Below, piece by piece: positions 25,458 through 56,706 of a DNA stretch of 64,000 nucleotides. Each line of letters begins with the position of its first letter. Positions within the stretch are counted from its first letter, which is position 1. A program made the position numbers and the translations under genes. The stretch spans positions 128,001 to 192,000 of the forward strand of contig CAWFQL010000012.1 of the NCBI GenBank assembly GCA_963817915.1, written 5' to 3'. This stretch comes from an uncultured candidate division Zixibacteria bacterium (GTDB taxonomy: Bacteria; Zixibacteria; MSB-5A5; UBA10806). Under the pieces are notes generated by a model. It was not told where the DNA came from. It saw only the letters and a list, made by a program, of their open reading frames with translations, and did no database searches.

Positions 25458-26681
25458 ATGGCAAAAAAATTATTATTGATGCTATTGTTTCTAACATTCC
25501 TAACGGCGACATGCTTTGCCCTGGAGGTAATTCAGGACACTACCGCCGGACCTCCGGCTCCAGCGCCGCCGACCAATGTGCGGGTGGCTGATAAGCCAAA
25601 CGACGCCGGACATGGCCTGATCGTAAAATGGGATTTGTCCATTGATGACTCCAATGGTCTTGGCAACGTAGTAGCATATGATATTCAACGATCAGCCAGC
25701 GCGGACGGCCCCTTTATATCAAGAGGAGTTGTGGCCAAAGGGATGAATTCCTATGCCGATGTCGATGAAACAGTGCCATCAGCGGATAACCCAAGCCTCA
25801 ATTACATGGCCCCCAATAGCACATGGTACTATAAAGTCGTATCGATCTCGGACAAGAATGTCCGTTCGAATCCCAGCGAAGTTATTTCAGGCACGACAGT
25901 TGAAAATTGGATTCATACGGGTAAGATCCCTATTTTTGTAGCCGCCATACTTTTTACTGTATTCATTTTGATTTTCATTCAGGTTGCAAAGAAGGGCAAA
26001 AACCTTTACGTCAGGCCGATCGCCGGTATCAATGCTGTCGATGATGCCATCGGCAGAGCTACCGAGATGGGCAAGCCTATTCTTTTCATTCTTGGACTTG
26101 GTACAGCCGGTGATATCGCGACTATCGCAGGGTTTACGATTCTTTCGCGCGTAGCCAAACGAACCGCGGAATATCAAACGAAAGTAATTGTGCCTGTTCA
26201 AGACCCCGTCGTGCTTGCTGTCGCGCAAGAAACAGTTAGAACAGCTTATCTTGAGGTTGGCCGTCCCGATCAATACAATCCTGACAATATCTTTTTCCTT
26301 ACATCGATGCAATTCCCGTATGTGGCGGCTGTCAATGGCATCATGCTTCGCGAACGGCCCGCGACAAATTTTTATATGGGCACATTCTATGCCGAATCGT
26401 TGATTCTCGCTGAAACCGGCAATATCGCGGGTTCTATTCAGATAGCGGGTACTGATCAAATCGCTCAGCTGCCGTTTTTTGTCGCGGCCACCGACTATAC
26501 ACTTATCGGCGAAGAGCTTTACGCGGCCTCGGCTTATCTTTCTCAAGAACCGGTCCAGCTCGGTACCCTTAAAGCTCAGGATTATACTAAAGCAGTTGTC
26601 ATGGCTATAATAGTTTTGGGCGCAATCGCAATCACCCTCGGATGGACCTTCATTCGAGATATGGTAACTATAACCCTGTAA
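25458..26681 (+). CDS. module copy 1, subunit A: signal peptide + FN3 + TM + DUF6754-like domain + TM
   Basis: FN3-like PTNVRVAD..VKWD..YDIQRS..YYKVVS; RPIAGINAVDDAIGRATEMG, FYAESLILAETG, DYTLIGEELYAASAYLS. Confidence 0.8.
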   Translation: MAKKLLLMLLFLTFLTATCFALEVIQDTTAGPPAPAPPTNVRVADKPNDAGHGLIVKWDLSIDDSNGLGNVVAYDIQRSASADGPFISRGVVAKGMNSYADVDETVPSADNPSLNYMAPNSTWYYKVVSISDKNVRSNPSEVISGTTVENWIHTGKIPIFVAAILFTVFILIFIQVAKKGKNLYVRPIAGINAVDDAIGRATEMGKPILFILGLGTAGDIATIAGFTILSRVAKRTAEYQTKVIVPVQDPVVLAVAQETVRTAYLEVGRPDQYNPDNIFFLTSMQFPYVAAVNGIMLRERPATNFYMGTFYAESLILAETGNIAGSIQIAGTDQIAQLPFFVAATDYTLIGEELYAASAYLSQEPVQLGTLKAQDYTKAVVMAIIVLGAIAITLGWTFIRDMVTITL

Positions 26682-26693
26682 CCTGGAGACACT

Positions 26694-27314
26694 ATGAAAA
26701 GAGAAATTCCATTATTGATTGTCATGGTTACAGGAATACTGATGTTTTTTCAGTATTTTATACCAAGCAATCTTTCCGAGAGAACATTTACCTTTTTGAA
26801 TGATTGGGTAATGGTAATCGGTATTCTTTCGTTGCCATTAGGAATCTGGAGTCTGGTTAAGGCCAATATTCAAAAATTATCTATTAAAGATGAATGGTTC
26901 TATTCGGCGGTCTTGCTCGCTGGCTTTTTTGTCATGGTCATAAGCGGCTTAAAGCCTAACTGGAGAACTGGTAGCGATATGCTGCATGTCACACTTTTCA
27001 ATAATATCCTTATCCCCATCCAGTCTACTATTTTTTCGCTGCTGGCATTTTTTGTCGCCAGCGCGGCTTATAGAGCATTTCGAGCGCGCTCAGTGCTCGC
27101 GACTATTCTCTTGGTCACCGCTTTGATTATCATGTTCCGTTTAATCCCACTCGGTCCGATCTCGGACGTCAACAATTGGCTTGTCGAAAAAATATTAACT
27201 GTTCCCAATATGGCGGCTAAACGGGCCATCGCGATGGGTATCGCGCTCGGCGCGACCGCAACGGCCATCAAGATCATCATGGGAATCGAACGAACCTATA
27301 TGGGTCGGGATTAG
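26694..27314 (+). CDS. module copy 1, subunit B: uncharacterised polytopic membrane protein
   Basis: MKREIP, LLAFFVASAAYRAFRAR, KIIMGIERTY are conserved in three paralogs. Confidence 0.85.
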   Translation: MKREIPLLIVMVTGILMFFQYFIPSNLSERTFTFLNDWVMVIGILSLPLGIWSLVKANIQKLSIKDEWFYSAVLLAGFFVMVISGLKPNWRTGSDMLHVTLFNNILIPIQSTIFSLLAFFVASAAYRAFRARSVLATILLVTALIIMFRLIPLGPISDVNNWLVEKILTVPNMAAKRAIAMGIALGATATAIKIIMGIERTYMGRD

Positions 27315-27320
27315 GAGGCG

Positions 27321-28166
27321 ATGGTAATGGAATTCTTACACAGAATGATGCAAATCGACCGTCGCTGGATTTACCTGGCAATAGGTCTCGCAGTTATTAT
27401 ACCCGCGATGATACCATTTACGGTGCCGGTTTCTGTTTCCACTGAAGTAAAAAAGATTTACGACTTCGTGGAAAATCTTGGGCCGAATGATTACGTAATG
27501 GTTGCTCTAGATTATGATCCATCCTCAATGGCCGAGCTAAATCCCATGGCAGAGGCAGTGCTTAAACACGCGTTCTCGCTTAATAGAAAAGTCGTCATCG
27601 TAACCCTGGCGCAATTCGGTCCCGGGATGGTAGAAGAGATAGTTACCCGACTCGGCAATGAATACAAGAAGGTTCGCGGAGTGGATTACACATTCCTCGG
27701 CTATCGGCCTTATCCGGCCATCACAATCATGCTGATGGGCACCGATTTCCGCGTACCGTTCCCGCAAGATTATTATGGGACGCCGCTTGATTCACTTCCA
27801 ATGATGCGCGGTATCAAGAATTTTTCGAATGTTAAAGGTGTTATTGATCTCACCGCCGGCAATACGGCCGATTTCTGGATCACCTACGGTAATGGTCGCT
27901 ACGATGTGCCTCTTGCCATCGGGATTACAGGCGTTATGGCCGCCGACTATTATCAATACCTTCAGTCCAATCAGATATTTGGGATTATTCCTGGCGTTAA
28001 GGGAGCCGCGGAGTACGAACGGCTTATCGATAAGCCGGGTCAGGGAATGCAGCAGGCTTCATATCAGGTTGTCGCCCACTCAGTTATTATTCTATTCATC
28101 CTGCTCTCAAATATCGCATTCTTTGTCACCCGCAACCAGAAATCAAAGACGGGAGGTGTGAAATGA
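27321..28166 (+). CDS. module copy 1, subunit C: 2-TM protein with a large central soluble domain
   Basis: DRRWIY, DYDPSSMAELNPMA, GVKGAAEYE, AH..IILF..LSNIAFF are conserved in three paralogs. Confidence 0.85.
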   Translation: MVMEFLHRMMQIDRRWIYLAIGLAVIIPAMIPFTVPVSVSTEVKKIYDFVENLGPNDYVMVALDYDPSSMAELNPMAEAVLKHAFSLNRKVVIVTLAQFGPGMVEEIVTRLGNEYKKVRGVDYTFLGYRPYPAITIMLMGTDFRVPFPQDYYGTPLDSLPMMRGIKNFSNVKGVIDLTAGNTADFWITYGNGRYDVPLAIGITGVMAADYYQYLQSNQIFGIIPGVKGAAEYERLIDKPGQGMQQASYQVVAHSVIILFILLSNIAFFVTRNQKSKTGGVK

Positions 28167-28786
28167 CATCTCAATTATTATGGAACACTGTCGCCGCCTT
28201 CCTTACCCTTTGCATATTCAGTTTTCTATACAAGGATAACCCCTTCTATAAATTCGCGGAGCGGCTCGTGGCCGGTATCGCTACTGGCTATTGGACTATG
28301 CTTTTGTTTCACACCAACTTTGTGCCGATAGTCTGGAACCGTCTGGTTCATGAACACAATTATTGGTATATTATTCCCACATTTCTCGGGCTTTTGATGT
28401 GGACTCGTTTTTCAAAAAAATGGTCGTGGCTATCCCGTTATTCGATCGCCTTCTATATAGGTATCTCGTCCGGTATTTCAATTACCCTGGCGCTTTACGC
28501 GTCGCTTTTCAGACAGTTAGAGGCGACAGTCAAATATCCCCTAACAATGGATGCGGCGGGATTGTCTGCATTGCTGATCATCATCGGAGTAATATCCGCT
28601 CTCATATACTTCTTCTTCTCAGCCGCACATAAAGGCGCGATGGGATTTGGTTCGAAACTTGGAATTTATATCATTATGATCGGATTCGGTGCCGGTTTTG
28701 GCCTTACGGTAATGGGACGTATAGCCTTGCTGGTTCAAAGAGTTATCTTCCTGAAGGGGTATGTTCAATCCTTTTTTGGGATGTAG
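28163..28786 (+). CDS. module copy 1, subunit D: uncharacterised polytopic membrane protein
   Basis: FSFLYKDNPFYKFAE, YFFFS..HKG, MIGFGAGFGLTVMGR are conserved in three paralogs; ATGA overlap with C. Confidence 0.85.
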   Translation: MTSQLLWNTVAAFLTLCIFSFLYKDNPFYKFAERLVAGIATGYWTMLLFHTNFVPIVWNRLVHEHNYWYIIPTFLGLLMWTRFSKKWSWLSRYSIAFYIGISSGISITLALYASLFRQLEATVKYPLTMDAAGLSALLIIIGVISALIYFFFSAAHKGAMGFGSKLGIYIIMIGFGAGFGLTVMGRIALLVQRVIFLKGYVQSFFGM

Positions 28787-28812
28787 CTAAAGGACTATTA
28801 AATTGTCCGCAT

Positions 28813-28840
28813 AGGGGCCGGCTATCCGGCCTCTTTGCTT
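28813..28840 (+). terminator. intrinsic terminator after module copy 1
   Basis: aggggccgg-ctat-ccggcctct followed by a T-rich tail. Confidence 0.7.
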
Positions 28841-28905
28841 TTCTATTCGCGAGCATCAGATTTTATTTGGAACCTATACGATAAAAACATATATATTACT
28901 TTAGT

Positions 28906-31606
28906 ATGTCATCAAGTCGTGCCAGGGTTTATTTTGTAGTCTTAATAACGGTTTCATTCGGCCTGTCATGTGTCTATTTCAATACTATGTTCACGGCTGA
29001 AAAGAAATTTAAGCAGGCGGAAAAAAGCCAGTTCGCCGAAAAGATCCAAGACCAAAATATGAATGCTCCGCCGCAAAGTATCCCCAAGCCGAAGCAAGGC
29101 AATAAGCGATCCAGATTTGAGGAAGGCGTGACCGTAGCAGATCCTCAGGAAAAAGCGCTTTACGATGATGTTATTAAGAAAGCCGGAACAGTCCTGAAAT
29201 ATCATCCTAATTCAAAATGGATAGATGAAGCCCTCTGGCTCATAGGCAAATCATATTTTAATACCGGCGAATATACTCTGGCCGATAGAAAATTCAAGGA
29301 ATTGGTAACCAATCATCCGGAATCAAAATACGCCGATGACTCCTACTACTATATGGGACTCTGCGAAATAATTCTGGGGCATAGCGATGCCGCCTTGACA
29401 GCATTCAGCGAAATCGAGCACTCCAAGAAAAAAAGCCCATACATGGATGATGTTTATTTCACGGGCGGAGTAATGGCCATGAACTCTGATAACTATTCGG
29501 AGGCCGTAGAGCTTTTCAAAAAATATCTTACTGAATTTTCCGGCGAGGATTCCTCCGCGCAAGCCTCGTTCATGATAGGTAAGAGCCAAGAAAAATTGGG
29601 CAATTACATGGACGCCTACCATGCCTACAAAAATGTCGAAAAATACAAACCATCAAAGCAGCTTTATTTCGATGCTACCATTGCGGCCGCCTCGGCAATC
29701 TTAAGAACCGATTCGATTGCGGTAGGAATGGCGGTCCTTCTGGATCTTGCCGATAATCAAAAATATTTCAGCAGATCCGGCGAAATTCGAATGAAGATAG
29801 CCGAAGGATATTACCTCGAAAAACAATTCGATAAGGCAATTGAAATTTATAAAGTCGTTACGGAAAAATATCCTCGAACCAATGATGCCGCTGAAGCTTA
29901 TTATCGCCTGGGAATTATTTATCAAAATGATTTATTTGACATTAAATCCGCAAAGGAATCCTTCACGAAGGCGCAAGGCGAATATCCTCAATCGGAATAC
30001 CGCAATTTGGCCGCAGCGAGACTTGCTCAGATAGCAAAACTCGAGACCTATCAGACGCAGATTCAACGAGCCGATTCACTTGAATTAGCTATCGCGAACG
30101 AAAAGAATACGCCGGTTTCGAATCGATTCGGCAAAATCTACAGGCGACTCGCTACATGTTGCGAGCCTCGATTCCTCAAAATCGATTTCGCCCGATACCG
30201 CTATCGCCTTACAGAGGGTTGATTCGACGCAATCGTCCGATACACCAAAAATGCTAGTCGATAGTACTGTTTCACCGAAGCAAGACAAAAAGCCTGATTC
30301 CTTGATGACGCTGGCCGACAGCTCTGTATCAACGAACCCAAACAAAATGCCTGATTCCCTAAAAACACCGGCCGATAGCTCTGTCTCACAAAAACAAAAC
30401 AAAAAGCCTGATTCCCTGGCGATCAATTATCCAACGCTTGGGCCATATCTCCGGGACATGATCAAGAATATAAATTCATCCGCAATCGCCCCCGAGGACT
30501 CATCCCTTAAATCGAATACACAGGACAGCTCCAAAGCGACTGTTTACGGTCCGAATCCGGAAAAATCGGCAAAAGCGCCTGCACTTAGCCCGGTGGATTC
30601 TATCGGATTCGCCGAAATCAAGGCAAGACAGGATAGCATTCGATTGGATATTTCCACTGCCGGGATTGATGCGCGTTACCAGCTCGCGGAGCTTTACGCC
30701 TATGAATTGAATCGTCCGGATTCCGCCCTGAATGCGTATAAGAATTTGTTAGAAAAATTCCCCAATTCCCGCTATGCCGCCAAATCTCTTTTAGCCTCTG
30801 CTTATATCGAAATGAACCGCGGCGATTCGATCAGCGCCAATACTTATTTGAAGGATCTAGTAGACAAATATCCTCGTAGCGTCCAGGCCGCCGAGGCCGC
30901 GGATCTGCTGAATTTCAAGATCAATCTTTCAGACAACGCTGTCGGCCTTTATGCCGTCGCTGAAAGTCTGGTGTTCCAAGGTAATAATCCCGACTCTGCG
31001 ATTGCATTATATAAATATATTGCCAGTGAATTTCCCGATCTTGCGCCTAATGCCTCATTTGCGGTCGCCTGGATATTAGACCAGGTTGAAGGAACGACTG
31101 ACAGCTCGGCTTATTTCGCGTATTCTCTGGTAAATGAAAAATACCCGCAGACCGAGTTTGCCGAGGCGGCCAAAATCCGCATAGGTTTAATCAAAAAAGA
31201 AGAGACAAAACGAATTCCTAAACGGGAGCAGCCACAACAAACCGATGAAAACATTCCTGACACATCCAGTCAGATTTCTGGTAATATTCCGATGGCGCCC
31301 CCCATCAAAACCGCAGGCGATTTCGTATATCCTCAAGCGCTCTTTGGCCGTGACCTAAAAGGAAATGTGATCTTTAAAATTAAGATGGACATTAGCGGCA
31401 AGGTCCAGGATTATGAGATTATCGGACCGTCCGGTGAAACCGCAATTGATTCATCCGCCACCGCCGCCTTACTAAAAACGGTTTTCGATACATCCAAGCT
31501 CGATCTGGCACAACTTGACAATTATTTTCAGTATTCGATACATTTCAAACGACCACAAGTAGATATTTATAATAATCCTTATGATAGTCTTAATTGGAGG
31601 CGATAA
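28906..31606 (+). CDS. large TPR lipoprotein with a C-terminal TonB_C-like domain (frameshift near 30121)
   Basis: Lipobox-like GLSC; TPRs such as HPNSKWIDEALWLIGKSYF and KYPRT..AAEAYYRLG; C-terminal YPQ..GNVIFKIKMDISGKV..SG..AIDSSA; removing one base joins the two ORFs. Confidence 0.75.
30236..30418 (+). repeat. about three 57-bp coding tandem repeats (19 aa)
   Basis: SDTPKMLVDSTVSPKQDKK / PDSLMTLADSSVSTNPNKM / PDSLKTPADSSVSQKQNKK / PDSL. Confidence 0.8.
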
Positions 31607-32430
31607 TAAAATATTCTAACTGCTACCCAATTATTAACAAAGAATATTTATCTTCCTCGGTTATAAAATTTAAAATTAAGGCAGATGAGATCGCGTCGAT
31701 TTCCAGACCTGGCCAATTTGTCCAAATCCGTACCAGCGATGACTATTTTCCTCTGTGGCCGAGACCGTTCTCCATCCATGACGCCGATTCTCAAAAAGGC
31801 GTTATCGACATCATTTTTAGGATTTCGGGGCTTGGCACATCTAAGCTCGCCCAAATGAATATTGAACAAAAATTGCATGTTTTCGGGCCGTTGGGCAACG
31901 GATTTCCCAATCTCGATAAAAATTCCAATTCATTGCTTGTCGCCGGTGGGGTTGGTTTGCCCCCATTATATTTCCTTGCAAAAAGGGCAATAAGAAATGG
32001 TGTTTCCCCCGCCAGGATTTCCATGATTTCCGGGGCAAGAAATAATGCCGAATTATTTGCCCAGAATGAAATAACCGAACTTGGAATCGATTTACAAATC
32101 TGTACTGACGATGGAAGTAAAGGCACAAAAGGAACCGCAGTGGATCTATTAGGAAAAAAGCTATCCGAAATGAAGTATAATCATGTTTATTCCTGCGGGC
32201 CTTCCGCCATGCTGCAGAAAATAGATCAACTTCTGATAAATAAGAATCTTCAAGGCTTTTTCTCGCTTGAAGCATTGATGCCATGCGGTTATGGCATATG
32301 CAGCGGATGCGCGATAAAGACCATTCCATCACCGGATTGCGGCCCGACTGACGACAAGAGAGACTATCATCTAAAACGAGTCTGCTACGATGGTCCTGTT
32401 TTCAAATCAGGGGAGGTGATGTGGGAATGA
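31594..32430 (+). CDS. pyrK: dihydroorotate dehydrogenase B electron-transfer subunit
   Basis: PGQFV, RPFSI, GPLGNGF, GGVGLPP, CGP, MPCGYGICSGC...VCYDGPVF; adjacent to pyrD (start codon uncertain). Confidence 0.9.
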   Translation: MEAIIKYSNCYPIINKEYLSSSVIKFKIKADEIASISRPGQFVQIRTSDDYFPLWPRPFSIHDADSQKGVIDIIFRISGLGTSKLAQMNIEQKLHVFGPLGNGFPNLDKNSNSLLVAGGVGLPPLYFLAKRAIRNGVSPARISMISGARNNAELFAQNEITELGIDLQICTDDGSKGTKGTAVDLLGKKLSEMKYNHVYSCGPSAMLQKIDQLLINKNLQGFFSLEALMPCGYGICSGCAIKTIPSPDCGPTDDKRDYHLKRVCYDGPVFKSGEVMWE

Positions 32431-33344
32431 ACATCAATCTTGAGGTCGAGATTTCCGGACTAAAATTCAAAAATCCAATTCTGACTGCGTCCGGATGTTT
32501 TTCATACGGGGAAGAGGCAGCCGAATTATATGATCTATCTTTGCTCGGCGGAATCATCACCAAATCAATAACTCTTTTGCCCCGTGAGGGTCACCCGCCG
32601 CCTAAAGTATGTGAAACAGATGCAGGGATGCTTAACGCTATAGGATTATCTAATGTCGGCGTAGAAAAACTTATCTCAGATAAGCTGCCATTCTTAATGA
32701 AATTCGATACTGTCAGAATAGTCAGCATCGCTGGTTCCACAATAGATGAATATGCCAGGTTGGCTGAGATTCTCTCCGCGCAAAAAACGGTAGACGCGTT
32801 GGAGGTAAATATCTCATGTCCCAATGTAGATGAGGGCGGCCTGGAATTTGGGGCATTTAGCGGCCCCGCAGGCAAAGTCATTAATGAAGTAAAGAAACAT
32901 TTCAAAAGACCTGTAATAGCCAAGCTCTCGCCTAATGTCACCAATATCGTCGAAATTGCCGAAAGCGTGGCTGATAATGGCGCTGATGCGGTGTCCTTGA
33001 TAAATACGCTCGTCGGAGCTTCAATTGATATTAATAAAAGAAAATTCAAGCTCTCGAATACTTTCGGAGGCTTATCGGGTCCTGCCATCCGGCCGGTCGC
33101 GATTGCGATGGTATATAAAGTATCAAAAGCCGTAAAAATTCCGATAATCGGAATTGGAGGAGTAACGACTTCTTCTGATGCCATCGAATTTCTTTTGGCG
33201 GGCGCTAAGGCTGTTCAGGTCGGGACCGCTTGTTTTATCGAGCCCAATGCTCCGTTGAATATTATTGAGGGAATTACAAACTACCTTCAATCTCAGGGAG
33301 AAAACAACATCAATAATATTATTGGTACTGTTGGCAAATCATGA
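32427..33344 (+). CDS. pyrD: dihydroorotate dehydrogenase B catalytic subunit
   Basis: NPILTASG, MLNAIGLSN, NISCPNV, KLSPNVT, GGLSGPAIRP. Confidence 0.95.
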   Translation: MNINLEVEISGLKFKNPILTASGCFSYGEEAAELYDLSLLGGIITKSITLLPREGHPPPKVCETDAGMLNAIGLSNVGVEKLISDKLPFLMKFDTVRIVSIAGSTIDEYARLAEILSAQKTVDALEVNISCPNVDEGGLEFGAFSGPAGKVINEVKKHFKRPVIAKLSPNVTNIVEIAESVADNGADAVSLINTLVGASIDINKRKFKLSNTFGGLSGPAIRPVAIAMVYKVSKAVKIPIIGIGGVTTSSDAIEFLLAGAKAVQVGTACFIEPNAPLNIIEGITNYLQSQGENNINNIIGTVGKS

Positions 33345-34183
33345 ATTTTGTAGAAAAGCTGTTGAACGCCGCCAGAAGCAATAAAAGCTGGCTATGTATC
33401 GGACTCGACCCCGATATTTCCAAAATACCGCAAAAATTCGGCAATTCCATCGAATCAATCCTCAAATTCAATAAGGCAATAATCGAGGCTGCTTCGGACA
33501 AAGTTTGCGCCTTTAAACCTAACTCGGCATTCTATGAATCTCATGGTGCCGAGGGATGGAATATTCTTGCGGAAACCATAAAGGCGGTTCCTTCCCATAT
33601 CCCTGTTATTCTCGATTTTAAAAGGGGCGATATCGGTAATACATCCAAAATGTATGCCATAGCTGCATTTGAGAAATTGGGCGCCGATGCGGTGACTGTC
33701 AGCCCATATCTCGGCGGTGATTCGATACAGCCATTTCTTGATTTTGCCGACAAAGGCGTTTTTGTCTTATGCTTGACATCGAATCCGTCTTCAGCAGACA
33801 TTCAGAAGAAAGTGATTGATTCCAATTCTTCATCCCATTTGGCAATTTATGAATATATCGCCGAACTCTCTCTCCAATGGAATAAAAACAAAAATATCGG
33901 ATTGGTTGTCGGCGCTTCATCGACCCAAGAGCTCAAAAATATTCGTGACAGAATCGGCCCGACTATTCCTATCTTGATTCCCGGCGTGGGAGCTCAGGGC
34001 GGTGACTTGGAAAAATCGATTATCGCTGGCTCCAATGAAAAAGGGGAGATGGCGATTATCAATGTCTCGCGGGCGATTATCTATCCCGGAACCGATGGCG
34101 ATCCTGTCGAGAAAATAGAATCTCAGGCAGAATTTTATCGGAAGAAGATTCAAGAGGGAATCGAAAATAAGCTTCACAAATAA
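33341..34183 (+). CDS. pyrF: orotidine-5'-phosphate decarboxylase
   Basis: LCIGLDP, AFKPN, LDFKRGDIGNT, IPGVGAQGG. Confidence 0.95.
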   Translation: MNFVEKLLNAARSNKSWLCIGLDPDISKIPQKFGNSIESILKFNKAIIEAASDKVCAFKPNSAFYESHGAEGWNILAETIKAVPSHIPVILDFKRGDIGNTSKMYAIAAFEKLGADAVTVSPYLGGDSIQPFLDFADKGVFVLCLTSNPSSADIQKKVIDSNSSSHLAIYEYIAELSLQWNKNKNIGLVVGASSTQELKNIRDRIGPTIPILIPGVGAQGGDLEKSIIAGSNEKGEMAIINVSRAIIYPGTDGDPVEKIESQAEFYRKKIQEGIENKLHK

Positions 34184-34194
34184 TTCTAAACAAC

Positions 34195-34223
34195 TTGCCA
34201 TTCGCTAATTTCCATAATATAGT
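34195..34223 (+). promoter_or_regulatory. sigma70-type promoter placed to give a leaderless mRNA
   Basis: TTGCCA-N17-TATAGT ends 6 nt before ATG 34230; no SD. Confidence 0.55.
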
Positions 34224-34229
34224 AATTTT

Positions 34230-34652
34230 ATGAAGAAATACCTCATCCTCGCAATATTAGCCATCATGGCCTGCGGAGGCAAACCCGGCCCCAAAGAAGT
34301 TGTCTTTGATTTCATCGACGGCGTCTTGTTATCGGATTCGCTGAAAATAACTAACGATCTTGATGTTATCTCATTTACGAAATACCTGATGACTAAGATG
34401 ACCCCTGAAGATTCTACCAAAGTATTGGCAGAAAAGCCGGTCGAAATCATCCAATCTCTTCTTGGCGATGGCGAAACCCGTGCAAGATGGAAAAGGCTCC
34501 AAATAATCGTCAATAAAGAGACAATTGAAAAGGATACCGCCCAGGTCGAAGTTTCATTTATCGATAAGACTATCGGTCATCAGCTTTACTCGAAAATGCT
34601 CCTGGCTAAACAGCTGGACGGAAGCTGGCGAATTTTCTATTTTGTCAGATAA
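34230..34652 (+). CDS. small lipoprotein (possibly NTF2/DUF4878-like)
   Basis: Lipobox IMAC; GPKEVVFDF...DTAQVEV...DGSWRI. Confidence 0.7.
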   Translation: MKKYLILAILAIMACGGKPGPKEVVFDFIDGVLLSDSLKITNDLDVISFTKYLMTKMTPEDSTKVLAEKPVEIIQSLLGDGETRARWKRLQIIVNKETIEKDTAQVEVSFIDKTIGHQLYSKMLLAKQLDGSWRIFYFVR

Positions 34653-34724
34653 ATAATTGTTATTCAATTTCGATTCGCATACCCCCGGATATTTACAATC
34701 TTAAGTATTGCCCCTAAAAAGCTC

Positions 34725-34753
34725 TTGACAGCTCCCGCATTAAGCCTTACCAT
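34725..34753 (+). promoter_or_regulatory. sigma70-type promoter
   Basis: TTGACA-N17-TACCAT. Confidence 0.55.
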
Positions 34754-35069
34754 AGCAATGACTTCAACGGTCGGTTGGCCTTGTGAAAATTGGGCCTGCA
34801 ATTATTAGTAAGGCAAATTTTATAATTCACAAGACGGCTGATAGAAATTGTCCAAAATAATCAAAATTGTCTTCGCTAAGTATCTTAGGACGGAAGAGAA
34901 TCTTACAAATCGTAACGAACTGCATCACCGAATTAATGGGATTGAGCAAGTTAATCTGCAATAAAACAATATTAATATCAATTTGGAGGTGAAACATTCT
35001 GACAAAAGCATCGCACCGATTAAATGGTTTTTAGGATTAAGACTAAATACTACTCGGAGGATATGAACA

Positions 35070-38354: not shown

Positions 38355-38393
38355 ACGCTGTGTAGATAATTCAAGGGGAAATATGCTTTTCAA

Positions 38394-42905: not shown

Positions 42906-42915
42906 GAGCGTTAAT

Positions 42916-44637: not shown

Positions 44638-44647
44638 TCCGCGCGAA

Positions 44648-46030: not shown

Positions 46031-46113
46031 ATGTTTTCCTTTTTATCGAGGGGCGCCGCTTTCAGCGCGACGCCCCCGTCCCCCTGATTCCACTCCTGTT
46101 GGAGTGTAAAAGT

Positions 46114-48285: not shown

Positions 48286-48338
48286 CTTTGCTCTCCTTTC
48301 AAGAGAACTGAGGTTTAAGGTTCACAATTCTAATGCAA

Positions 48339-48354
48339 AGCAAGAGATATGCCA
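48339..48354 (-). promoter_or_regulatory. sigma54 (-24/-12) promoter
   Basis: Minus strand TGGCATATCTCTTGCT, an exact GG-N10-GC, about 55 nt upstream of ATG 48285. Confidence 0.7.
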
Positions 48355-48635
48355 TCGACAATAATGCGACTCTATATTCGATTATTTCACTGAAAGACTT
48401 GATCTTAGATTGTCAGAAAAGCAATCCAATGATGTCAGCGTGGTGATTACTTCATTACCCTAATAAATAGAAAACGCAATTTTCGATGTCAATGAAATAT
48501 TAATAACTGGAATCCAGATAATTGATTAGAGCGAATAACTCTGATGGTTACCTCGTCCTTCGGATAGATACTATATACTCTTAAAGATAATATTCTGATA
48601 TTTGGAATTGGATCAAATTGGATTCTTGTCTATAT

Positions 48636-48998
48636 TTATTTACCTATAATCATTTTTATTGAGATCAAAAGCAGGGCAATCCCGAATATCCGCTCCAATA
48701 TGACATTAGAAACATTCGTGGCGAGTCTGGCTCCGAAGAGGCTGCCGACAAAAAATCCCAGGCAGATCAAAGCGGCGATTTTTAGATCAACATACCCTTG
48801 TCTATAATAAGTCCAGGCCGCCAAAAATCCTATCGGCGGCACCAGTAATGCCAGTGTCGTCCCTTGTGCCTGATGTTGTGTCATTCCGAAAATAAAGATC
48901 AGCGCCGGTACGATTATAACCCCTCCGCCAATTCCGATTAGCCCGCTCAGCGCGCCAGCGATTAATCCCAATAAAATGTAAAATAAGAAATTATCCAT
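48636..48998 (-). CDS. half-size TSUP (TauE/SafE) family membrane protein
   Basis: GLIAGALSGLIGIGGGVIIVP...QHQAQGTTL. Confidence 0.88.
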   Translation of the reverse strand: MDNFLFYILLGLIAGALSGLIGIGGGVIIVPALIFIFGMTQHQAQGTTLALLVPPIGFLAAWTYYRQGYVDLKIAALICLGFFVGSLFGARLATNVSNVILERIFGIALLLISIKMIIGK

Positions 48999-49202
48999 AA
49001 TATCTCCTCCAAAGGTCTTATACTACTTCGAATAGTATTAATTCCACTGAAAAATCGCCTCCATAATAATATCAAGAATACCAATTCGAAGTTCCGGCAA
49101 AGTTCCCGTTACGGGCTGTAATTTTCGCTTGACTTAATATATCCCAAATTGCATGTTAGCGCTCAGGTTTTGGGTATTAGATGAGGGAATGAATCGGGGA
49201 AA

Positions 49203-50785
49203 ATGCTGAATAAAATAGGCTTCTACATAGCTCTGATAATCATATTACCTCTGCTTATATGGTTAGCCTATGAACGGCCGCATCCCGGATCCCAATCTTA
49301 CCCGCCCTACGATCTTACAGCCATCTCAAATCCTATAGATACAATTGGTTCAATAACATTGAATTGGCATATCCTTGCCGGTGATTCTGTTAATGCCCCA
49401 TCATTCCCCGATTATAAAATTTATCGTTCGGATTCTCAAAATGGCCCATTTAATGAAATTGGGATAGTGCCGCATTCTGCTCCTTACGCGACAATTCTTA
49501 CTCGTCAATTCATGGATACTACAGTTGCCGTTGGTTCGTCATATTATTATAAAGTAAATTGCTCAATCGACGGTAGTCCCGTTGAATCGAATATCGCCGG
49601 ACCGGTTTCATATTCGAAACCAACTCAAGCGATGGCAGGTGTTCGAGGGGAGACTATTATATTCCCCCCAACACAGCTTCGCGCGTTTGACTCCCCCAAT
49701 GATGAAGGTCATTCGATTACTCTCGAATGGAAAATTTCACCCAACGACACTCCCAAAAGCTTAAAATTCAGGGGCTATGACATATATAGAGCGGCCAATC
49801 CTGACGGCCCATTCGAGATTATAAGCGATGCCACGGGCGGCGAAACTGACCCCGGACGCCATATGAAAATTTTGAATGACGGTAATAATGTCGGCGATGG
49901 CGTGAACTATTATTATTATGTAGCGGCCAAATGGAATGGCCAGATCGCAAAATCGAATATAGCGGGTCCGGCTCAAGTCCAGCGCCCAATGGTTCCATAC
50001 CGGTCGAGCGGTATCATTGATTCTTTTGGGCATACTGATAGGGACAATATTATTCTATATCAATCAGGCGAAATCGGGCAAAGAGCTATTCATTCGCAAA
50101 ATCGCCGGTCTGGAAGCTGTCGATGAGGCAGTCGGAAGAGCCACCGAGATGGGCAAAAAGGTATTCTATATTCCCGGCACTCAGGATATGGATAATGTCC
50201 AGACAATTGCCGGATTGACCATACTTTCCCGTGTGGCAAAATTAACCGCCGAATATGAAACCAAGGTTAGATGTCCCTGTATCTCGTTCGCTGGTCATGA
50301 TCACTGCGCGCGAGGTGGTTAAGGAATCTTATCTCAATGCCGGCAGACCGGACTATTACAGCGATGACATGGTTTATTACCTGACGGACGACCAATTTGG
50401 GTATGCCGCCGCTATCGATGGTCTTGTTATTCGTCAGAAGCCGGCCACCATCTTTTATCAGGGCGCATTTTACGCGGAATCACTTATTCTCGCGGAAACC
50501 GGCAACTCAATTGGCGCGATTCAAATCGCGGGCACTGCCATGCCTGCCCAATTACCGTTTTTTGTAGCGGCCTGCGATTATACTCTTATAGGTGAAGAGC
50601 TATTCGCTGCATCGGCATATCTTTCCCGCGAACCGAAGCTCCTTGGCTCTCTCAAGGGTCAGGACATCGGCGGGAAATTAGTGTTTTTGACATTGGCGAT
50701 TATTTTCATGGTTATCGCTACAATTGGCGCCATCAACAGCTCCAATATTGTGGCCACTGTATCACGAATCTTTAATGTGAATTAG
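49203..50785 (+). CDS. module copy 2, subunit A: two FN3 + TM + DUF6754-like domain (frameshifts near 49978 and 50265)
   Basis: Three ORF fragments join by single-base removals; RKIAGLEAVDEAVGRATEMG, FYAESLILAETG, GEELFAASAYLS. Confidence 0.8.
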
Positions 50786-50798
50786 GCAGGGTAGTTTT

Positions 50799-51461
50799 TT
50801 GAGACGAGAAATTCCTCTTATCCTCACCGCGGTCATCGGCCTGACATACTTTATCCAATTTTTCGTGCCTCATAGACCGATGGGCTTCTTGTCCAATATG
50901 TTTACCGACTGGGTCATGATTATAGCAGCTTGCGCCATCTGGCTGGGAGCATTGAATCTTCTAAAAGTCTCATTAGACAAAATATATAAGAAAGATCACG
51001 ATTGGTTCTTTGCCGTAGTTACCATTATCTCATTTCTATTGATAATTATCGTGGGCTTCTTCTTCTCAGGCGGACGGAGATTCCAGGATCCCGGCACCAG
51101 ATTTGACTGGCTCTACATTAATATATACACACCTTTGATGGCTACTATGTTCGCCATGCTGGCGTTCTTTGTGGCCTCGGCATCATATCGAGCTTTCAGA
51201 GCCCGCAACGCTCAGGCAACTGTACTGCTTATAGCGGCATTCATAGTCATGCTCGGCAGAACACCATTCGGAGATTGGTTCAGTTATCGTATACTTTTCC
51301 TGCCTGCCGGTTGGGGAATAGGTGATCTTTCGAATATCATTATGAATTATTTCAATGTTGCCGGACAGAGGGCAATTATGATCGGTATTGCGCTTGGAAC
51401 TGTATCAACCTCGCTTCGCATAATTCTCGGTATCGAACGAACCTATCTGGGGAGCGATTGA
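50799..51461 (+). CDS. module copy 2, subunit B
   Basis: TTG start; RREIP, MLAFFVASASYRAFRAR, RIILGIERTY. Confidence 0.85.
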   Translation: MRREIPLILTAVIGLTYFIQFFVPHRPMGFLSNMFTDWVMIIAACAIWLGALNLLKVSLDKIYKKDHDWFFAVVTIISFLLIIIVGFFFSGGRRFQDPGTRFDWLYINIYTPLMATMFAMLAFFVASASYRAFRARNAQATVLLIAAFIVMLGRTPFGDWFSYRILFLPAGWGIGDLSNIIMNYFNVAGQRAIMIGIALGTVSTSLRIILGIERTYLGSD

Positions 51462-51462
51462 T

Positions 51463-52362
51463 ATGCAAAGCCTTTTCAAAATGCTCCTCGCTCTCGATAG
51501 AAGAATCATATTCATAGTTATCTTCCTCGCATTGTCCATTCCTATATTCTTGCATATGAAAATAGATATCGATGTTACCCGCGAGGTTGTCTCCTTCTAC
51601 AACGCCATCGAGCATCTTCCCGCTGGATCCAGGATATTGGTTTCATGCGACTATGACCCAGGCTCCGAGCCGGAGCTTCAGCCAATGGCCGAGGCCGGAT
51701 TCAGATACTTCGTAAGCAATCACTTAAAATTCGTAATTATCGGACTCTGGCCGCAAGGCTCGATGCAGGCTAATAAGGCACTTGTTACGGTCAATGAAAT
51801 AAAGAGCGGATTTACGGTTGAAAATGGCGATACTCTCTATTTTGGACGAGACCTGATTGTCGTGGGAGCCGATACCGCCCGCTACGGAAGGGATTTCATT
51901 AATCTCGGTTATCAATCCGGCAATGAATTGGTTATACAGAGATTGGGATCATCCATAAGAGAGACATTCCCCAATGACGCTAAATTCGGACGCCCTATTG
52001 ATACTTATCCACTTATGAGCAGCATCAACAAGCTTGCAGACTTCGATTTTATTTTCAATTTATCAGCCGGATATCCGGGTACTGTCGAATGGGTTCAATT
52101 TGCTGTTGATAGATTCCATGTCGCCTGCGGAGCGGGAAATACTGCGGTTCAAGCGCCCCAGGTTTATCCATATCTCGATAGCGGTCAGCTAACGGGTCTC
52201 ATGGGCGGCATGAAGGGCGGCGCCGAATTTGAAAAGCTTGTCAATTTCAAGGCCAAGGCTACTATGTCAATGGTCAGCCAGACGGCCGCGCATATATTCG
52301 TGATTCTATTTATCATAATTGGCAACATGGCTTACTTCGTAACTCGCGGCAAGAAGGCTTAA
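51463..52362 (+). CDS. module copy 2, subunit C
   Basis: DRRIIF, DYDPGSEPELQPMA, GGMKGGAEFE, AHIFVILFIIIGN. Confidence 0.85.
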   Translation: MQSLFKMLLALDRRIIFIVIFLALSIPIFLHMKIDIDVTREVVSFYNAIEHLPAGSRILVSCDYDPGSEPELQPMAEAGFRYFVSNHLKFVIIGLWPQGSMQANKALVTVNEIKSGFTVENGDTLYFGRDLIVVGADTARYGRDFINLGYQSGNELVIQRLGSSIRETFPNDAKFGRPIDTYPLMSSINKLADFDFIFNLSAGYPGTVEWVQFAVDRFHVACGAGNTAVQAPQVYPYLDSGQLTGLMGGMKGGAEFEKLVNFKAKATMSMVSQTAAHIFVILFIIIGNMAYFVTRGKKA

Positions 52363-52378
52363 GAAGGGTAATTTACTA

Positions 52379-53110
52379 ATGGGTTTCTGGGATACATTCG
52401 GAATTTGGGCTGCCGCCATTTTGACATTGGGGATAATATCATTCCTTTATAAAGACAATCCGTTTTATAAATTATGCGAGGCTATTTTCGTTGGTATATC
52501 CGCCGGATATTATTTTGTTTCTCTGTATTACCAAAACCTGCTCCCCAAGCTTTTCGATAATCTCGGCGTGACCAAATTATTCGGCTTCTCCAATGACAAC
52601 GGCGCGCTGCAAAATGTTTTCGCTGGTCAATGGGATTCAAGAATCTGGTATATTTTCGCGGGCGTATTGGGTGTGATGATGCTATTGCGTCTCGTCCCCA
52701 AAATTGGATGGATTTCTCGTTGGCCGCTGGCATTGATTGTCGGATCGACCGCGGGCCTTTATATGGTCACTTATTTCCAGTCCAACTTCTTAAGCCAGTT
52801 GCAGGTGACTGTAGTCCCGCTGATTAATTTTGGAAAAATCCACGCCCTTAATGGAGCATCAAATGCTGAAGACTTCTTCGGTGCATATCTTGGAAATATC
52901 GTCTTAGTAATAGGCACATTGACAGGTCTTGTTTATTTCTATTTCTCCAAAGAGCATAAGGGAGCGATGGGTGGCGCGGCCAAGATTGGAATTTATTTTT
53001 TGATGATCACCTTCGGAGCTTCCTTCGGCTATACGGTCATGTCGCGTATGTCATTGCTCATCGGCAGATTATATTTTCTATTCGGCGACTGGATGGGCAT
53101 AGTCAAATAG
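52379..53110 (+). CDS. module copy 2, subunit D
   Basis: SFLYKDNPFYK, YFYFSKEHKG, FGASFGYTVMSR. Confidence 0.85.
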   Translation: MGFWDTFGIWAAAILTLGIISFLYKDNPFYKLCEAIFVGISAGYYFVSLYYQNLLPKLFDNLGVTKLFGFSNDNGALQNVFAGQWDSRIWYIFAGVLGVMMLLRLVPKIGWISRWPLALIVGSTAGLYMVTYFQSNFLSQLQVTVVPLINFGKIHALNGASNAEDFFGAYLGNIVLVIGTLTGLVYFYFSKEHKGAMGGAAKIGIYFLMITFGASFGYTVMSRMSLLIGRLYFLFGDWMGIVK

Positions 53111-53179
53111 CAGTTTCCCGATTGAAATTGTGGTTTTTTATACCAATAGGAAGTTTTACAGCCGTATTACATTGAATTC

Positions 53180-54439
53180 ATGATGAAATTAATATTACGA
53201 AATGGAATTTTAGCATTAGCGATCCTTCAAATCGCGGCTGTTTCCGGAATCGCTCAGGCACAGTCACCTGAAGAACACGCACCCATATTGAAATCAGCGG
53301 TTGCCGATACCGGATTCGTATTTCATTATAGCATGCTGTCTCCTCCGCCCGGCCCGGTCACAAATATTATTGCGGAAGATTTGCCCAATGATCCCGGCAA
53401 AGCCGTGGAATTATCGTGGTCGGTAGCTCCTGGCGATGACAAGATTTATCAGGCCGTTACCGATTATGGCATTTATCGTTCCCAAAGCCCCGATAGCGGG
53501 TTTGCGCTTATATCGCGGATTCCATCGGGATCGAATGGCTTCTCCGATTCCGATACTTCGCTGGTCAACGGACAAAAATATTATTACAAAGTTGCGGCGA
53601 TATATAAATCAGATACATTAATGTCGGCAGTCGCCGGTCCCGCGATTCCCGAGCCGCAATGGTTCCATAAAAAGAGAACTGCCGTTTTTATCATGACAAT
53701 TATCTTCTGCGGTTCGGCCTTATTCCTTATCTCGCGGGCTCAAAAAGGCCGCAAAACGTATGTTCGTCCGATTGCAGGAATCAATGCGGTAGATGAGGCT
53801 ATCGGTCGTGCCACCGAGATGGGCCGTCCAATCTTGTTCGTGCCCGGTTTGGGAGCGGCTTCCGATGTCGCCACTATTGCCGCCTTCACGATTCTGGCAA
53901 GGGTCTCAAAAAAAATTGCTGAATACCAGACAAGAATAATTGTACCTAATTACGATCCGGTTGTCATGGCTATCTGCCAGGAAGTAGTCAAAGAATCTTG
54001 TTCCGCCGCCGGTAGGCCGGAATCCTATGATCAGAAAGATGTCTATTTCCTGACTCAGGATCAATTCCCCTATACAGCCGCAGTCAACGGTACCATGCTT
54101 CGTGAAAAGCCCGCCGCCAATTTCTACCTGGGTAAATTTTACGCTGAATCGTTAATACTCGCCGAGACCGGATTCGTATCAGGTTCAATTCAAATTGCCG
54201 GAACCGATGAGCTTGTGCAGATACCATTCTTCATAGCCTCATGCGATTTCACCCTGATGGGCGAGGAGCTCTATGCCGCCTCCGCTTATCTTTCACAGGA
54301 ACCCCAGCAATTGGGCACATTGAAGGCTCAGGACTGGGGCAAAGTTATCGCCATAAGTTTGATGATCGCCGGATTGATAGTATATTATTTTTCTACCACT
54401 GCGGGTGATGCCTTTTCATTATGGATTCAGGGAGGATGA
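53180..54439 (+). CDS. module copy 3, subunit A: signal peptide + FN3 + TM + DUF6754-like domain
   Basis: RPIAGINAVDEAIGRATEMG, FYAESLILAETG, GEELYAASAYLS. Confidence 0.85.
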   Translation: MMKLILRNGILALAILQIAAVSGIAQAQSPEEHAPILKSAVADTGFVFHYSMLSPPPGPVTNIIAEDLPNDPGKAVELSWSVAPGDDKIYQAVTDYGIYRSQSPDSGFALISRIPSGSNGFSDSDTSLVNGQKYYYKVAAIYKSDTLMSAVAGPAIPEPQWFHKKRTAVFIMTIIFCGSALFLISRAQKGRKTYVRPIAGINAVDEAIGRATEMGRPILFVPGLGAASDVATIAAFTILARVSKKIAEYQTRIIVPNYDPVVMAICQEVVKESCSAAGRPESYDQKDVYFLTQDQFPYTAAVNGTMLREKPAANFYLGKFYAESLILAETGFVSGSIQIAGTDELVQIPFFIASCDFTLMGEELYAASAYLSQEPQQLGTLKAQDWGKVIAISLMIAGLIVYYFSTTAGDAFSLWIQGG

Positions 54440-54473
54440 TTTAGCCCTTAGCCGGCTTAATCTGTAGAGAGAA

Positions 54474-55124
54474 TTGAAAAGAGAAATTCCAATAGCGATT
54501 ATTTTTGCCTGCGGCGTCTTCATGGTGATCCAATACTTTGTGCCTCACTATGTATCCGCGACAATTTATCAAAATGCGCTTAATTGGACAATTATTGTCG
54601 GCATATTTACTCTTGTTATCGGTACTGGCTCGCTGATCGGGCTTCATTATGATAAAATCGCCAGGCGAAAAGAAAAATGGCCCTATTCGATTGTTACTCT
54701 CGTAGCTCTGGCTGTCATGACAATTATCGGTCTATCATCCCCCAATGCGATACAAAACCCACAAGGCCTTTTCATGAAGATCTATTTCTACGTCTTGTCG
54801 CCGGTCCTTGCCACCATGTTTGCATTGCTGGCATTCTTCATTGCCTCGGCTTCTTATAGGGCATTCAGGGCCAGGAATCTGCTGGCCACCTTGCTTCTGT
54901 GCTCGGCTGTAATTGTAATGCTTGGCCGCATCTCTGTAGGCGATATGATTACTGGATGGCTGCCGCCGGGAGTCCGGCTTTCTGATGTTGCCACCTATAT
55001 ACTTGAATTTCCAAATACTGCGGCCAAAAGAGCCATATATATAGGAGTCGGCCTGGGAATCGCCGCCACTTCGCTAAAAATTATACTCGGTATCGAACGT
55101 ACCTGGCTGGGAGGAAGCAAATAA
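54474..55124 (+). CDS. module copy 3, subunit B
   Basis: TTG start; KREIP, LLAFFIASASYRAFRAR, KIILGIERTW. Confidence 0.85.
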   Translation: MKREIPIAIIFACGVFMVIQYFVPHYVSATIYQNALNWTIIVGIFTLVIGTGSLIGLHYDKIARRKEKWPYSIVTLVALAVMTIIGLSSPNAIQNPQGLFMKIYFYVLSPVLATMFALLAFFIASASYRAFRARNLLATLLLCSAVIVMLGRISVGDMITGWLPPGVRLSDVATYILEFPNTAAKRAIYIGVGLGIAATSLKIILGIERTWLGGSK

Positions 55125-55957
55125 TGGCAAGTAGCTTCTGGCAAAAGGTTATGGATGTCGACCGTCGATGGATTTATCTGATAATCGGCATTGTCACATT
55201 TCTTCCAATGCTTACCGCTATCAGATTGCCGGTCAAGATTACTCCCGAAGTAGAATCAGTCTATGATCGTCTCGAATCGCTTCCGCCCAATACAGTAGTC
55301 ATGATCGCCATGGAATACGATCCCGCAACCGCCGCTGAGCTTCAGCCGATGGCCCGTGCAATCTTACGCCATTGCTTCTCGAAAAATCTACGGGTAATCT
55401 CAACTGCGCTCATGATCGACGGCGTCATTATGATAGAGCAGGATCTAAAATTGATATCAGCCGAGTATGGCAAAAAATATGGCGTCGATTATGTCTTCTT
55501 TGGCTATAAGCCCTATATGCAAATGGTAGTTTTAAATATGGGCGAGAATTTCCGCAAGCCATTCCCGAAAGACTTCTACAATAACAGCCTCGACGATCTC
55601 CCTATGATGAAAGGCTTGAATAACTATTCCAATATCGATTGCATCGTTAACGTTAACGCCACTTCCGGCGCCGATTATTGGATCAACTATGCGAGCGGAC
55701 GATATGGCGTGCCTCTCGCGCTGGGAGTCACCGCTGTCATGGCTACGGATTATTATACCTTCTTGCAATCCAAACAACTTTTTGGCTTGATGGGTGGACT
55801 CAAAGGCGCTGCCGAATACGAAATTCTAACCGGACGGCCAAAGGACGTGGCCAATCGTTCGATGACATCTGTATCGGTGGCTCATGTATTCATCGTCTTG
55901 TTTATTATTATCGGTAATATAGCCTTCTTTGCGGCGGGCGGAAGGAAGAAGGTTTAG
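55124..55957 (+). CDS. module copy 3, subunit C
   Basis: DRRWIY, EYDPATAAELQPMA, GGLKGAAEYE; TAATG coupling to B. Confidence 0.85.
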   Translation: MASSFWQKVMDVDRRWIYLIIGIVTFLPMLTAIRLPVKITPEVESVYDRLESLPPNTVVMIAMEYDPATAAELQPMARAILRHCFSKNLRVISTALMIDGVIMIEQDLKLISAEYGKKYGVDYVFFGYKPYMQMVVLNMGENFRKPFPKDFYNNSLDDLPMMKGLNNYSNIDCIVNVNATSGADYWINYASGRYGVPLALGVTAVMATDYYTFLQSKQLFGLMGGLKGAAEYEILTGRPKDVANRSMTSVSVAHVFIVLFIIIGNIAFFAAGGRKKV

Positions 55958-55959
55958 AT

Positions 55960-56706
55960 ATGGAGCAATTATCTATCGGCACATTGCTCTGGATGACCTT
56001 CGCGGCATTTCTCACCCTTTCGATTTTTTCGTTCCTCTGGCGCGATAACCCGTTTTACAGATTTGCCGAGCATCTGATCGTTGGTGTCTCCGCCGGATAC
56101 TGGATCGCGATTTTATACCATACATCATTGAAGGATCTCTGGCTCGATCCCTTGAGCGCGTCCATTCAAGCCTTCGGACAACCCGGGGGAGTGTTCATTG
56201 CGAAAATTGGAATTTTAGTAGCAAATCTCACCCCCGGAATTTTGGGCATAATGATGTTCAGCCGCTTTTTTGAAAAGATATCCTGGATTTCAAGATGGCC
56301 AATCGCGTTTTACCTGGGAATATCAACCGGTGTCGCCTTGCCGTTATTCCTTCAAAGTTTCGTGGCCCGTCAAATATCAGCGAATATGATCGATCCTCGC
56401 GCAATAACCAATACAATGACATCAGACCTGACCATCCTATTCACCACCGGAAATAGCACACTTTTATTCTGGCAGGGATTTGGACAGCTTTATATTGTTG
56501 TTGGATGTATCTGCGGCCTGGCATACTTCTATTTTTCCGCCGAGCACAAAGGTCTCATGGGCGGAGCCGCCAAGATCGGTATCTGGACTTTGATGATCGG
56601 CTTCGGCGCGACTTTTGGCTACACTGTGATGTCGAGGATATCTCTCCTTATCGGCCGATTTAATTTTCTGATCAATTGGGTTAATGCCCTCCGAAATCAT
56701 TTCTGA
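55960..56706 (+). CDS. module copy 3, subunit D
   Basis: FSFLWRDNPFYRFAE, YFYFSAEHKG, FGATFGYTVMSR. Confidence 0.85.
   Translation: MEQLSIGTLLWMTFAAFLTLSIFSFLWRDNPFYRFAEHLIVGVSAGYWIAILYHTSLKDLWLDPLSASIQAFGQPGGVFIAKIGILVANLTPGILGIMMFSRFFEKISWISRWPIAFYLGISTGVALPLFLQSFVARQISANMIDPRAITNTMTSDLTILFTTGNSTLLFWQGFGQLYIVVGCICGLAYFYFSAEHKGLMGGAAKIGIWTLMIGFGATFGYTVMSRISLLIGRFNFLINWVNALRNHF

Follow-up and report, generated by a model that had tools for sequence, protein, structure and literature searches.

A DUF6754-containing four-gene membrane cassette of an uncultured Zixibacteria bacterium and its predicted partnership with an actin-fold ATPase-like protein

A stretch of 64,000 nucleotides from an uncultured Zixibacteria bacterium (GenBank assembly GCA_963817915.1, contig CAWFQL010000012.1, positions 128,001 to 192,000; hereafter the window) carries the same series of four membrane-protein genes, A-B-C-D, three times over, and the question raised by this locus is what such a cassette does and whether it acts alone. 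The conclusion that A, B, C and D form a four-subunit membrane complex is well supported. An earlier sequence-only reading of the window took the cassette to be self-contained; more probably it supplies the membrane portion of a larger system of six to eight genes, of which the ATPase-like component (c1) and its partner (c0) are encoded on other contigs in this genome. The genes concerned are as follows, coordinates without a contig name being those of the window.

25458..26681, + strand: A1, 407 amino acids (aa); signal peptide, one FN3-like outer domain, transmembrane (TM) helix, cytoplasmic Rossmann-fold DUF6754 domain, TM helix
26694..27314, + strand: B1, 206 aa; six predicted TM helices, N-terminus probably inside, conserved AYRAFRAR loop, GIER tail
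27321..28166, + strand: C1, 281 aa; TM helix, Rossmann-fold domain (probably outside), TM helix; fold taken from the C-D fusion P0155
28163..28786, + strand: D1, 207 aa; three short-helix/long-helix repeats, N-terminus probably outside; 4-nucleotide overlap with C1
49203..50785, + strand: A2, split gene; frames 49203-50126, 50017-50322 and 50255-50785; two FN3-like repeats, then DUF6754
50799..51461, + strand: B2, 220 aa
51463..52362, + strand: C2, 299 aa
52379..53110, + strand: D2, 243 aa
53180..54439, + strand: A3, 419 aa; FN3-like domain and DUF6754 (E 1.4e-115)
54474..55124, + strand: B3, 216 aa
55124..55957, + strand: C3, 277 aa
55960..56706, + strand: D3, 248 aa
Contig C17:458916-462191 of the source genome, outside the window: cassette copy 4 (complete)
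Contig C17:63958-65841 of the source genome, outside the window: ATPase-like c1
Contig C18:86226-87353 of the source genome, outside the window: partner c0
Contig C15:12340-13246 of the source genome, outside the window: helpers Y and X

The A-B-C-D order claimed for three blocks of the window is present at all of them, with open reading frames in tight or overlapping spacing (intra-cassette gaps of -4 to 34 nucleotides), and the motifs quoted for A, B, C and D all recur in the translations of the three copies. The count of three is correct for the window but incomplete for the genome, where a fourth cassette lies on contig C17, and the A gene of copy 2 is not a single reading frame. The paralogues share 31-50% identity (blastp E 1e-42 to 1e-125), far beyond chance, and the four copies on sequence grounds are old paralogues, since they fall into separate clades and copies 1-3 each have orthologues of their own in related genomes. 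The likeness of A to DUF6754, proposed in that reading, is borne out by a match of A1 residues 149-401 to PF20539 (E 1e-117); the scores are 392 bits for A1, 385 for A3 and 124 + 259 for the pieces of A2, against a curated cut-off of 27. DUF6754 corresponds to the C-terminal 255 residues of A, its TM-Rossmann-TM part, but the family has no assigned function and covers A only. The FN3 label of A comes from Pfam matches of its homologues, and no Pfam or NCBIfam family matches B, C or D above cut-off. Literature searches with the DUF6754 name, family accessions or combined terms gave no paper (subscription papers and supplements lay outside the search), and those on GlmL and Zixibacteria transport gave nothing relevant to this system among the titles listed.

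The four-subunit conclusion draws on the wider family. DUF6754 matches number 3-6 in each of 41 of 41 related genomes and are absent from all 14 control genomes, and the A profile matches 2,535 protein clusters at 50% identity. A GTDB search yielded 626 confirmed stretches of about 4,700 estimated in all, and the best 80 of the 626 bear the names Zixibacteria, Ignavibacteria, Eisenbacteria, CSSED10-310, Cloacimonadota, Fermentibacteria, WOR-3/Stahlbacteria, Poribacteria, Planctomycetota and Edwardsbacteria; a plasmid search gave no match for the system. Across 162 long loci, some of them redundant, 193 of the 217 A matches are followed in order by B, C and D, in about ten phyla (14 are cut by the locus end), and A precedes B in all 205 countable cases. 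The earlier statement that the unit is always duplicated as a whole is nearly right, the departures being 10 A genes that stand alone and supernumerary genes for C (L106) and D (L175). Pairwise distances correlate at 0.83-0.88 across the four subunits in 185 cassettes, although shared ancestry alone also yields such correlations. Among 14 long D matches there are five natural C-D fusions from separate lineages (P0149, P0150, P0155, P0156 and P0162), two of which, P0155 and P0156, come from cultured planctomycetes, and no A-B, B-C or A-D fusion was found among 120 of 766 long A matches, 28 long B matches and 150 of the 2,535 representatives. P0149 (locus L083), which lacks an extra TM helix present in the other fusions, may be a stop-loss artefact, and P0155 was therefore chosen for folding; its AlphaFold model has a predicted local distance difference test score (pLDDT) of 86 and a predicted template modelling score (pTM) of 0.85. 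The conserved order, the fusions in separate lineages, the pTM of the fusion model and the parallel divergence of the subunits all back the complex. Three outcomes were named beforehand as speaking against it, namely a match to a characterised complex, genes that do not co-occur in other genomes, or a lack of any confident interface between subunits, and none of these was found with models of parts of the assembly.

No ATPase is visible in the window, as had been noted, but the genome does encode an actin-fold ATPase-like gene elsewhere. c1 and c0 are the commonest neighbours of the arrays, at 20 and 21 of 130 loci, and the full order Y-X-c1-c0-A-B-C-D occurs in no fewer than seven loci (L055, L079, L092, L165, L186, L188 and L202), which belong to more than one phylum; X lies directly upstream of A in systems with a short A. 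The source genome has a single c1 and a single c0, plus Y and X, on contigs other than that of the window. c1 is a long MutL/GlmL-like protein of about 600-630 aa with an extra C-terminal domain (whole-profile match to PF13941, E 7e-128). Over 62 sequences the blocks D16-G18-S-T-T-T-K23, D294-G-G-A-T-T and G436-G437, which we take to be the phosphate-1, phosphate-2 and adenosine motifs, are invariant, and so are the individual ASKHA positions (D16/G18/S19/T20/T21/K23, D294/G296/G297/T299/T300 and G436/G437); judged by these motifs, c1 is ATPase-like with its nucleotide-binding residues intact. c0 is 375 aa long and contains barrel-sandwich hybrid repeats with weak matches to RnfC_N, NQRA_N and Biotin_lipoyl, and presumably comprises a swivel-like and a KOW-like domain. 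Profile searches assign no family to c0, X or Y. A PDB sequence search with c0 gave weak matches only (RNA polymerase beta' insert, RraA and Spt5 KOW, E 0.04-0.6), and one with c1 gave nothing at E <= 10.

Co-occurrence was scored in 151 genomes of one phylum of patchy distribution, around a Brocadiaceae genome (G090). DUF6754 is present in 40 of these; long c1 is found in 38 of the 40 carriers and in none of the 111 non-carriers, and c0 in 37 carriers and one non-carrier (a contig-edge fragment). In a set of 61 genomes c0 is present in 60 and is a single match in 58, which, with the several DUF6754 matches in each of the 41 related genomes, points to one motor serving many cassettes. A divergent c1/c0 subfamily (L136:55-3216, L179:7278-9749, L180 and L181) is seen only in cassette-bearing genomes yet not beside the cassettes; its members lack the C-terminal domain of c0, sometimes carry an N-terminal zinc ribbon, and are sometimes fused, as in L136 and L179.

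The family match of c1 invites another assignment. The B12-mutase accessory proteins GlmL/MutL (PF13941, NF040745) and Or-4 (NF040744) share with c1 the PF13941 match and the actin-fold nucleotide motifs, and MutL/GlmL is a reactivating chaperone with a role as mutase helper (PMC4682846). c1 differs from them in its greater length, its extra C-terminal domain and its pairing with c0, and its presence follows that of DUF6754 and not that of GlmE or lysine/ornithine aminomutase. In the NCBIfam tests for GlmL and Or-4 its scores stay under the cut-offs, by a wide margin in two cases (229 of 475 and 222 of 600) and by less in the third (168 of 204). The mutase profiles PF06368 and PF09043 were not found in the source genome (94% complete) or in any of the 40 carriers; they exceed cut-off in 2 and 1 of the 151 genomes, all non-carriers, and the only short GlmL in a non-carrier (G138) adjoins GlmE. 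Because the carriers lack GlmE and lysine/ornithine aminomutase and the short GlmL sits beside GlmE, we rejected c1 as a mutase reactivase.

Two further readings of an actin-fold protein next to membrane subunits bear on the same data. In the PilM/PilN/PilO system an actin-fold protein positions an envelope machine by binding a membrane subunit at its tail, and by this analogy A-B-C-D could be a structural anchor or export platform, with the conserved cytoplasmic GIER tail of B as the binding site. No secretin, pilin or outer-membrane partner recurs with the cassettes, and several paralogues to one ATPase is unlike such platforms, which leaves this idea improbable. Hydantoinase/oxoprolinase-type proteins activate their substrates chemically, and a membrane-embedded ATP-dependent enzyme or group translocator, in which c1 would activate a substrate that A-D hands across the membrane or uses to modify a lipid or envelope component, would fit the weak Hydantoinase_A matches of c1 (E 3e-4 to 3e-3), the barrel-sandwich hybrid repeats of c0 and the unusually large set of invariant acidic residues in A (E56, E166, E172, D199, E205, E206 and D228). 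Such an enzyme is nonetheless quite unlikely, in that no pathway enzyme travels with the operon and c0 has no invariant histidine over 59 sequences, which disfavours a phospho-histidine relay.

What the membrane part may look like is suggested by models and topology. The AlphaFold model of the conserved part of A (pLDDT 92) consists of a TM helix, a further helix, six strand/helix units and a second TM helix, and the C part of the P0155 model has these elements in identical order, plus a small insertion. The D part contains three units, each of a short and a long helix; repeats 1 and 2 align with each other (P 0.0044, reversed control 0.57) and the third does not align. By their charges the A domain and the B N-terminus are expected inside and the C domain outside. 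The second outer loop of B can be placed outside because large domains are inserted there near residue 95, among them propellers of the FG-GAP and WD40 types and a C-like domain; in one locus (L122:1255-2595) B carries a whole C-like Rossmann domain in this loop, though the next gene is a normal C. An extra TM helix lies between C and D in four of the five C-D fusions (all but P0149) and before D in the homologues P0151-P0154, which places the D N-terminus outside. B and D would then be six-helix proteins of opposite orientation and, as far as models and topology go, the pairs A/C and B/D each appear mirrored across the membrane. Conserved polar residues lie in or beside TM helices of D (E33, R186 and R193), C (H253 and N264) and A (Q227, D228 and K231).

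Inverted-topology cores are typical of secondary carriers, and A-B-C-D may alternatively be an ion-coupled carrier or gated channel, with c1/c0 acting on the A Rossmann domain as an assembly, gating or reactivating factor, much as reactivases act on their clients, and not as a per-cycle motor. The charged residues in the D and C helices would suit this, as does the description of MutL/GlmL as a reactivating chaperone (PMC4682846). The RCK-gated potassium transporters KtrAB and TrkAH, and domain III of transhydrogenase PntB, also place a Rossmann domain at the membrane face, and the fold searches with A and C matched RCK/Ktr/Trk domains and PntB (5but, 4g65, 6i8v and 4j16). The RCK/Ktr/Trk matches (Z 8.3-9.4, root-mean-square deviation 2.8-4.3, 114-139 residues aligned) tie with sirtuins, dehydrogenases and glycosyltransferases, unrelated proteins of Rossmann fold, and so indicate a common fold only; here one domain copy, that of C, faces outside, unlike RCK rings, and neither a pore-loop filter nor an NADP-site motif stands among the conserved columns. 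That c1 and c0 are kept almost without exception is compatible with a motor or a factor alike, and we regard a carrier or channel as unlikely. AmiS/UreI channels have six helices arranged as three hairpin repeats around a pore, to which the three repeats of D, modelled only within the C-D fusion, can be compared. For A and the C-D fusion alike, Foldseek found nothing at E <= 0.001; in the VIA fold search the highest Z values, 10.3 (A) and 9.8-9.9 (C), all belong to generic Rossmann folds, with the D part barely covered; a PDB sequence search gave nothing at E <= 10 for B or D; and in the ESM Atlas B and C match unnamed clusters only. A and C have 13 of their top 50 fold matches in common, and several of these begin at the identical template residue.

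The outer part of A is highly variable, ranging from absent (in a 255-aa A) to more than 1,000 residues, and the outer domains of A and B include FN3, PQQ-type, FG-GAP and WD40 propeller types. This variety, together with housekeeping-like neighbour genes, would be in keeping with a transmembrane sensor whose outer domains read the envelope while c1 serves as a nucleotide switch relaying inward. Genes for a kinase, cyclase, sigma factor or DNA-binding protein do not recur alongside it across phyla, the outer domain is dispensable, and the invariant twelve-helix core seems more membrane than a relay needs; a sensor is decidedly unlikely. In Cloacimonadota and Fermentibacteria loci (L094, L123, L130, L098 and L099) an extra A gene, giant in Cloacimonadota, follows D, which suggests that A subunits are interchangeable on one B-C-D core. 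Conservation is concentrated on the inner side, with mean column identity of 64% in the A inner domain against 34% in the C outer domain, as expected if all paralogues bind one partner.

That partner may be c1. Complex prediction with c1 (residues 10-609), c0 (155-373) and the A inner domain gave a score of 0.57, against 0.00 for the best of three controls, including one in which c1 was replaced; contacts agree among runs at 94% or more and partner pLDDT is at least 77. The docking mark is reached by 116 of 157 solved pairs and 2 of 215 mismatched pairs, but 18 of the 157 solved pairs and both mismatches reach it at 0.60 or under, so that 0.57 lies in the weak range. A sequence search gave no solved relative of c1, which makes a score owed to a memorised structure less likely, and the prediction lends weak support to docking of c1 on the cytoplasmic domain of A. 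In the soluble diol dehydratase reactivase DdrAB the swivelling domain of an actin-fold ATPase grips a small alpha/beta subunit; c1, c0 and the A domain would form a split analogue of it, although DdrAB has no membrane part and was not returned by PDB sequence searches with the c0 and c1 profiles.

The reading that we favour, with a probability somewhat short of even, is an ATP-driven importer in which one motor is shared by several cassettes. It starts from the order, fusions, co-occurrence and motifs seen in the genomes and from predicted folds and docking, and infers transport, its direction and its coupling. Each cassette would be one inner-membrane complex importing a small polar solute, with B and D forming an antiparallel twelve-helix core, C an outer cap and likely binding site, and A an inner cap and coupling site. 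In its nucleotide cycle c1, together with c0, would move the A domain such that the core opens alternately to each side. A single c1/c0 motor would be common to the four old paralogues, as MsmX, MsmK and ECF modules are shared; the paralogues would differ in cargo, and the variable outer domain of A would be a tuning part. The sharing has precedent in MsmX, MsmK and the group II ECF transporters, where one energising module serves several membrane modules encoded apart (PMC8144104). The present system differs from shared-ATPase ABC importers and group II ECF transporters in that its ATPase is of actin fold and not P-loop, there is no binding protein, T or S component, and four different membrane subunits bear mirrored Rossmann caps.

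Family tests agree with the earlier view that the layout is not that of ABC, TRAP, ECF or Rnf. A-D have no match to PF00005, a BPD_transp permease or a solute-binding Pfam family; no DctP, DctQ or DctM was found in Pfam/NCBIfam searches; and in the same databases B, C and D match no EcfA/A', T or S component, the co-occurring ATPase-like protein being PF13941. The membrane subunits of Rnf and Nqr have conserved cysteine pairs for an intramembrane iron site and act with flavin and Fe-S partners; for RnfA/E and NqrD/E there is no family match, and no cysteine occurs among columns of B or D conserved at 90% or more.

Several observations weigh against a shared-motor importer. The closest relatives of c1 that bear a name carry the annotation of enzyme-reactivating chaperones, not of transport motors (PMC4682846). 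The docking pass is weak, was made with trimmed chains and with alignments built for this analysis, and returned no individual contacts, and the related genomes in the co-occurrence sample are not independent. Sequence homology between A and C is barely visible, the best alignment of 102 in-register columns having a probability of 6% and an E of 0.012, obtained only with broadened alignments (reversed control E 0.042), and that between B and D is not visible in profile-profile comparison. Among 136 of 155 co-directional neighbour representatives no catabolic enzyme, binding protein or regulator recurs across phyla; many substrate-specific importers keep such neighbours, whereas those of this system are heterogeneous. 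An anammox-family record (L117) is among the carriers, so that feeding on peptides cannot be the sole use, and lysine riboswitches were not found, there being no Rfam match in the window, in 8 planctomycete loci or in 18 of 42 metagenome loci, none of which is known to be from Bacillota or archaea.

As to cargo, amino acids or peptides are our guess. SBP_bac_5 lies beside one of the 136 neighbour representatives scanned. In one of the 162 loci, from a genome of the planctomycete phylum, a fused oligopeptide ABC ATPase gene lies co-directionally between two cassettes (L165:7739-9769). Genes resembling those of cell-wall peptide turnover surround copy 4 (L031, C17:451000-466000), including an M23 peptidase, an enolase-family epimerase-like gene that is also found near cassettes in six Poribacteria loci, and others that we take to be LD- and DD-carboxypeptidase-like. 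This neighbourhood is a possible hint at muropeptide cargo, though not one that is general across phyla. A scan for promoters and terminators around copy 1 gave chance-level results.

The A gene of copy 2 spans three overlapping frames with two frameshifts, and its pieces match single orthologues of 527-531 aa in relatives (52-54% identity in the N-terminal part, 77-84% in the two conserved pieces). As 3 of 36 genes tested in this assembly occupy more than one frame, an assembly error would be the simpler reading. One of the three is the gene behind copy 1 for a TPR protein with a C-terminal TonB_C-like domain (28906-31606, + strand, two frames), probably another frameshift in this assembly since a relative has one 872-aa reading frame (L047:13703-16318).

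Other genes of the window lie close to the cassettes. A half-length TauE/SafE protein of 120 aa (48636-48998, - strand) is divergent from copy 2. Copy 3 is followed by two DUF3857/transglutaminase-like genes (56753-60464, + strand), likewise in five related loci, a link at the level of the lineage only. A pyridoxal phosphate-dependent aminotransferase (PF00155) and then a 375-aa protein without Pfam family (61324-63660, - strand) are kept beside copy 3 in relatives; we take this pair to resemble serine palmitoyltransferase and a bacterial ceramide synthase, a likeness that would point to sphingolipids being made in the lineage.

To our knowledge, the ATP-driven solute transporters described so far are powered by ABC/ECF, P-type or rotary ATPases and not by an actin-fold enzyme. 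That the present system is a new class of primary active transporter, in which an actin/Hsp70-fold ATPase drives a pseudo-symmetric A-B-C-D permease with mirrored Rossmann caps and paralogous permeases share one motor, in many mostly uncultured phyla, is possible and a little less probable than the importer itself; if true, it would add a mechanism class. Under the rival readings, too, every one of the 41 genomes of the lineage tested contains a membrane machine of six to eight genes, and its presence accounts for the finding of a protein with the label of B12-mutase helper in genomes that lack such mutases. Because cultured planctomycetes carry the C-D fusion (P0155 and P0156), the system is testable now.

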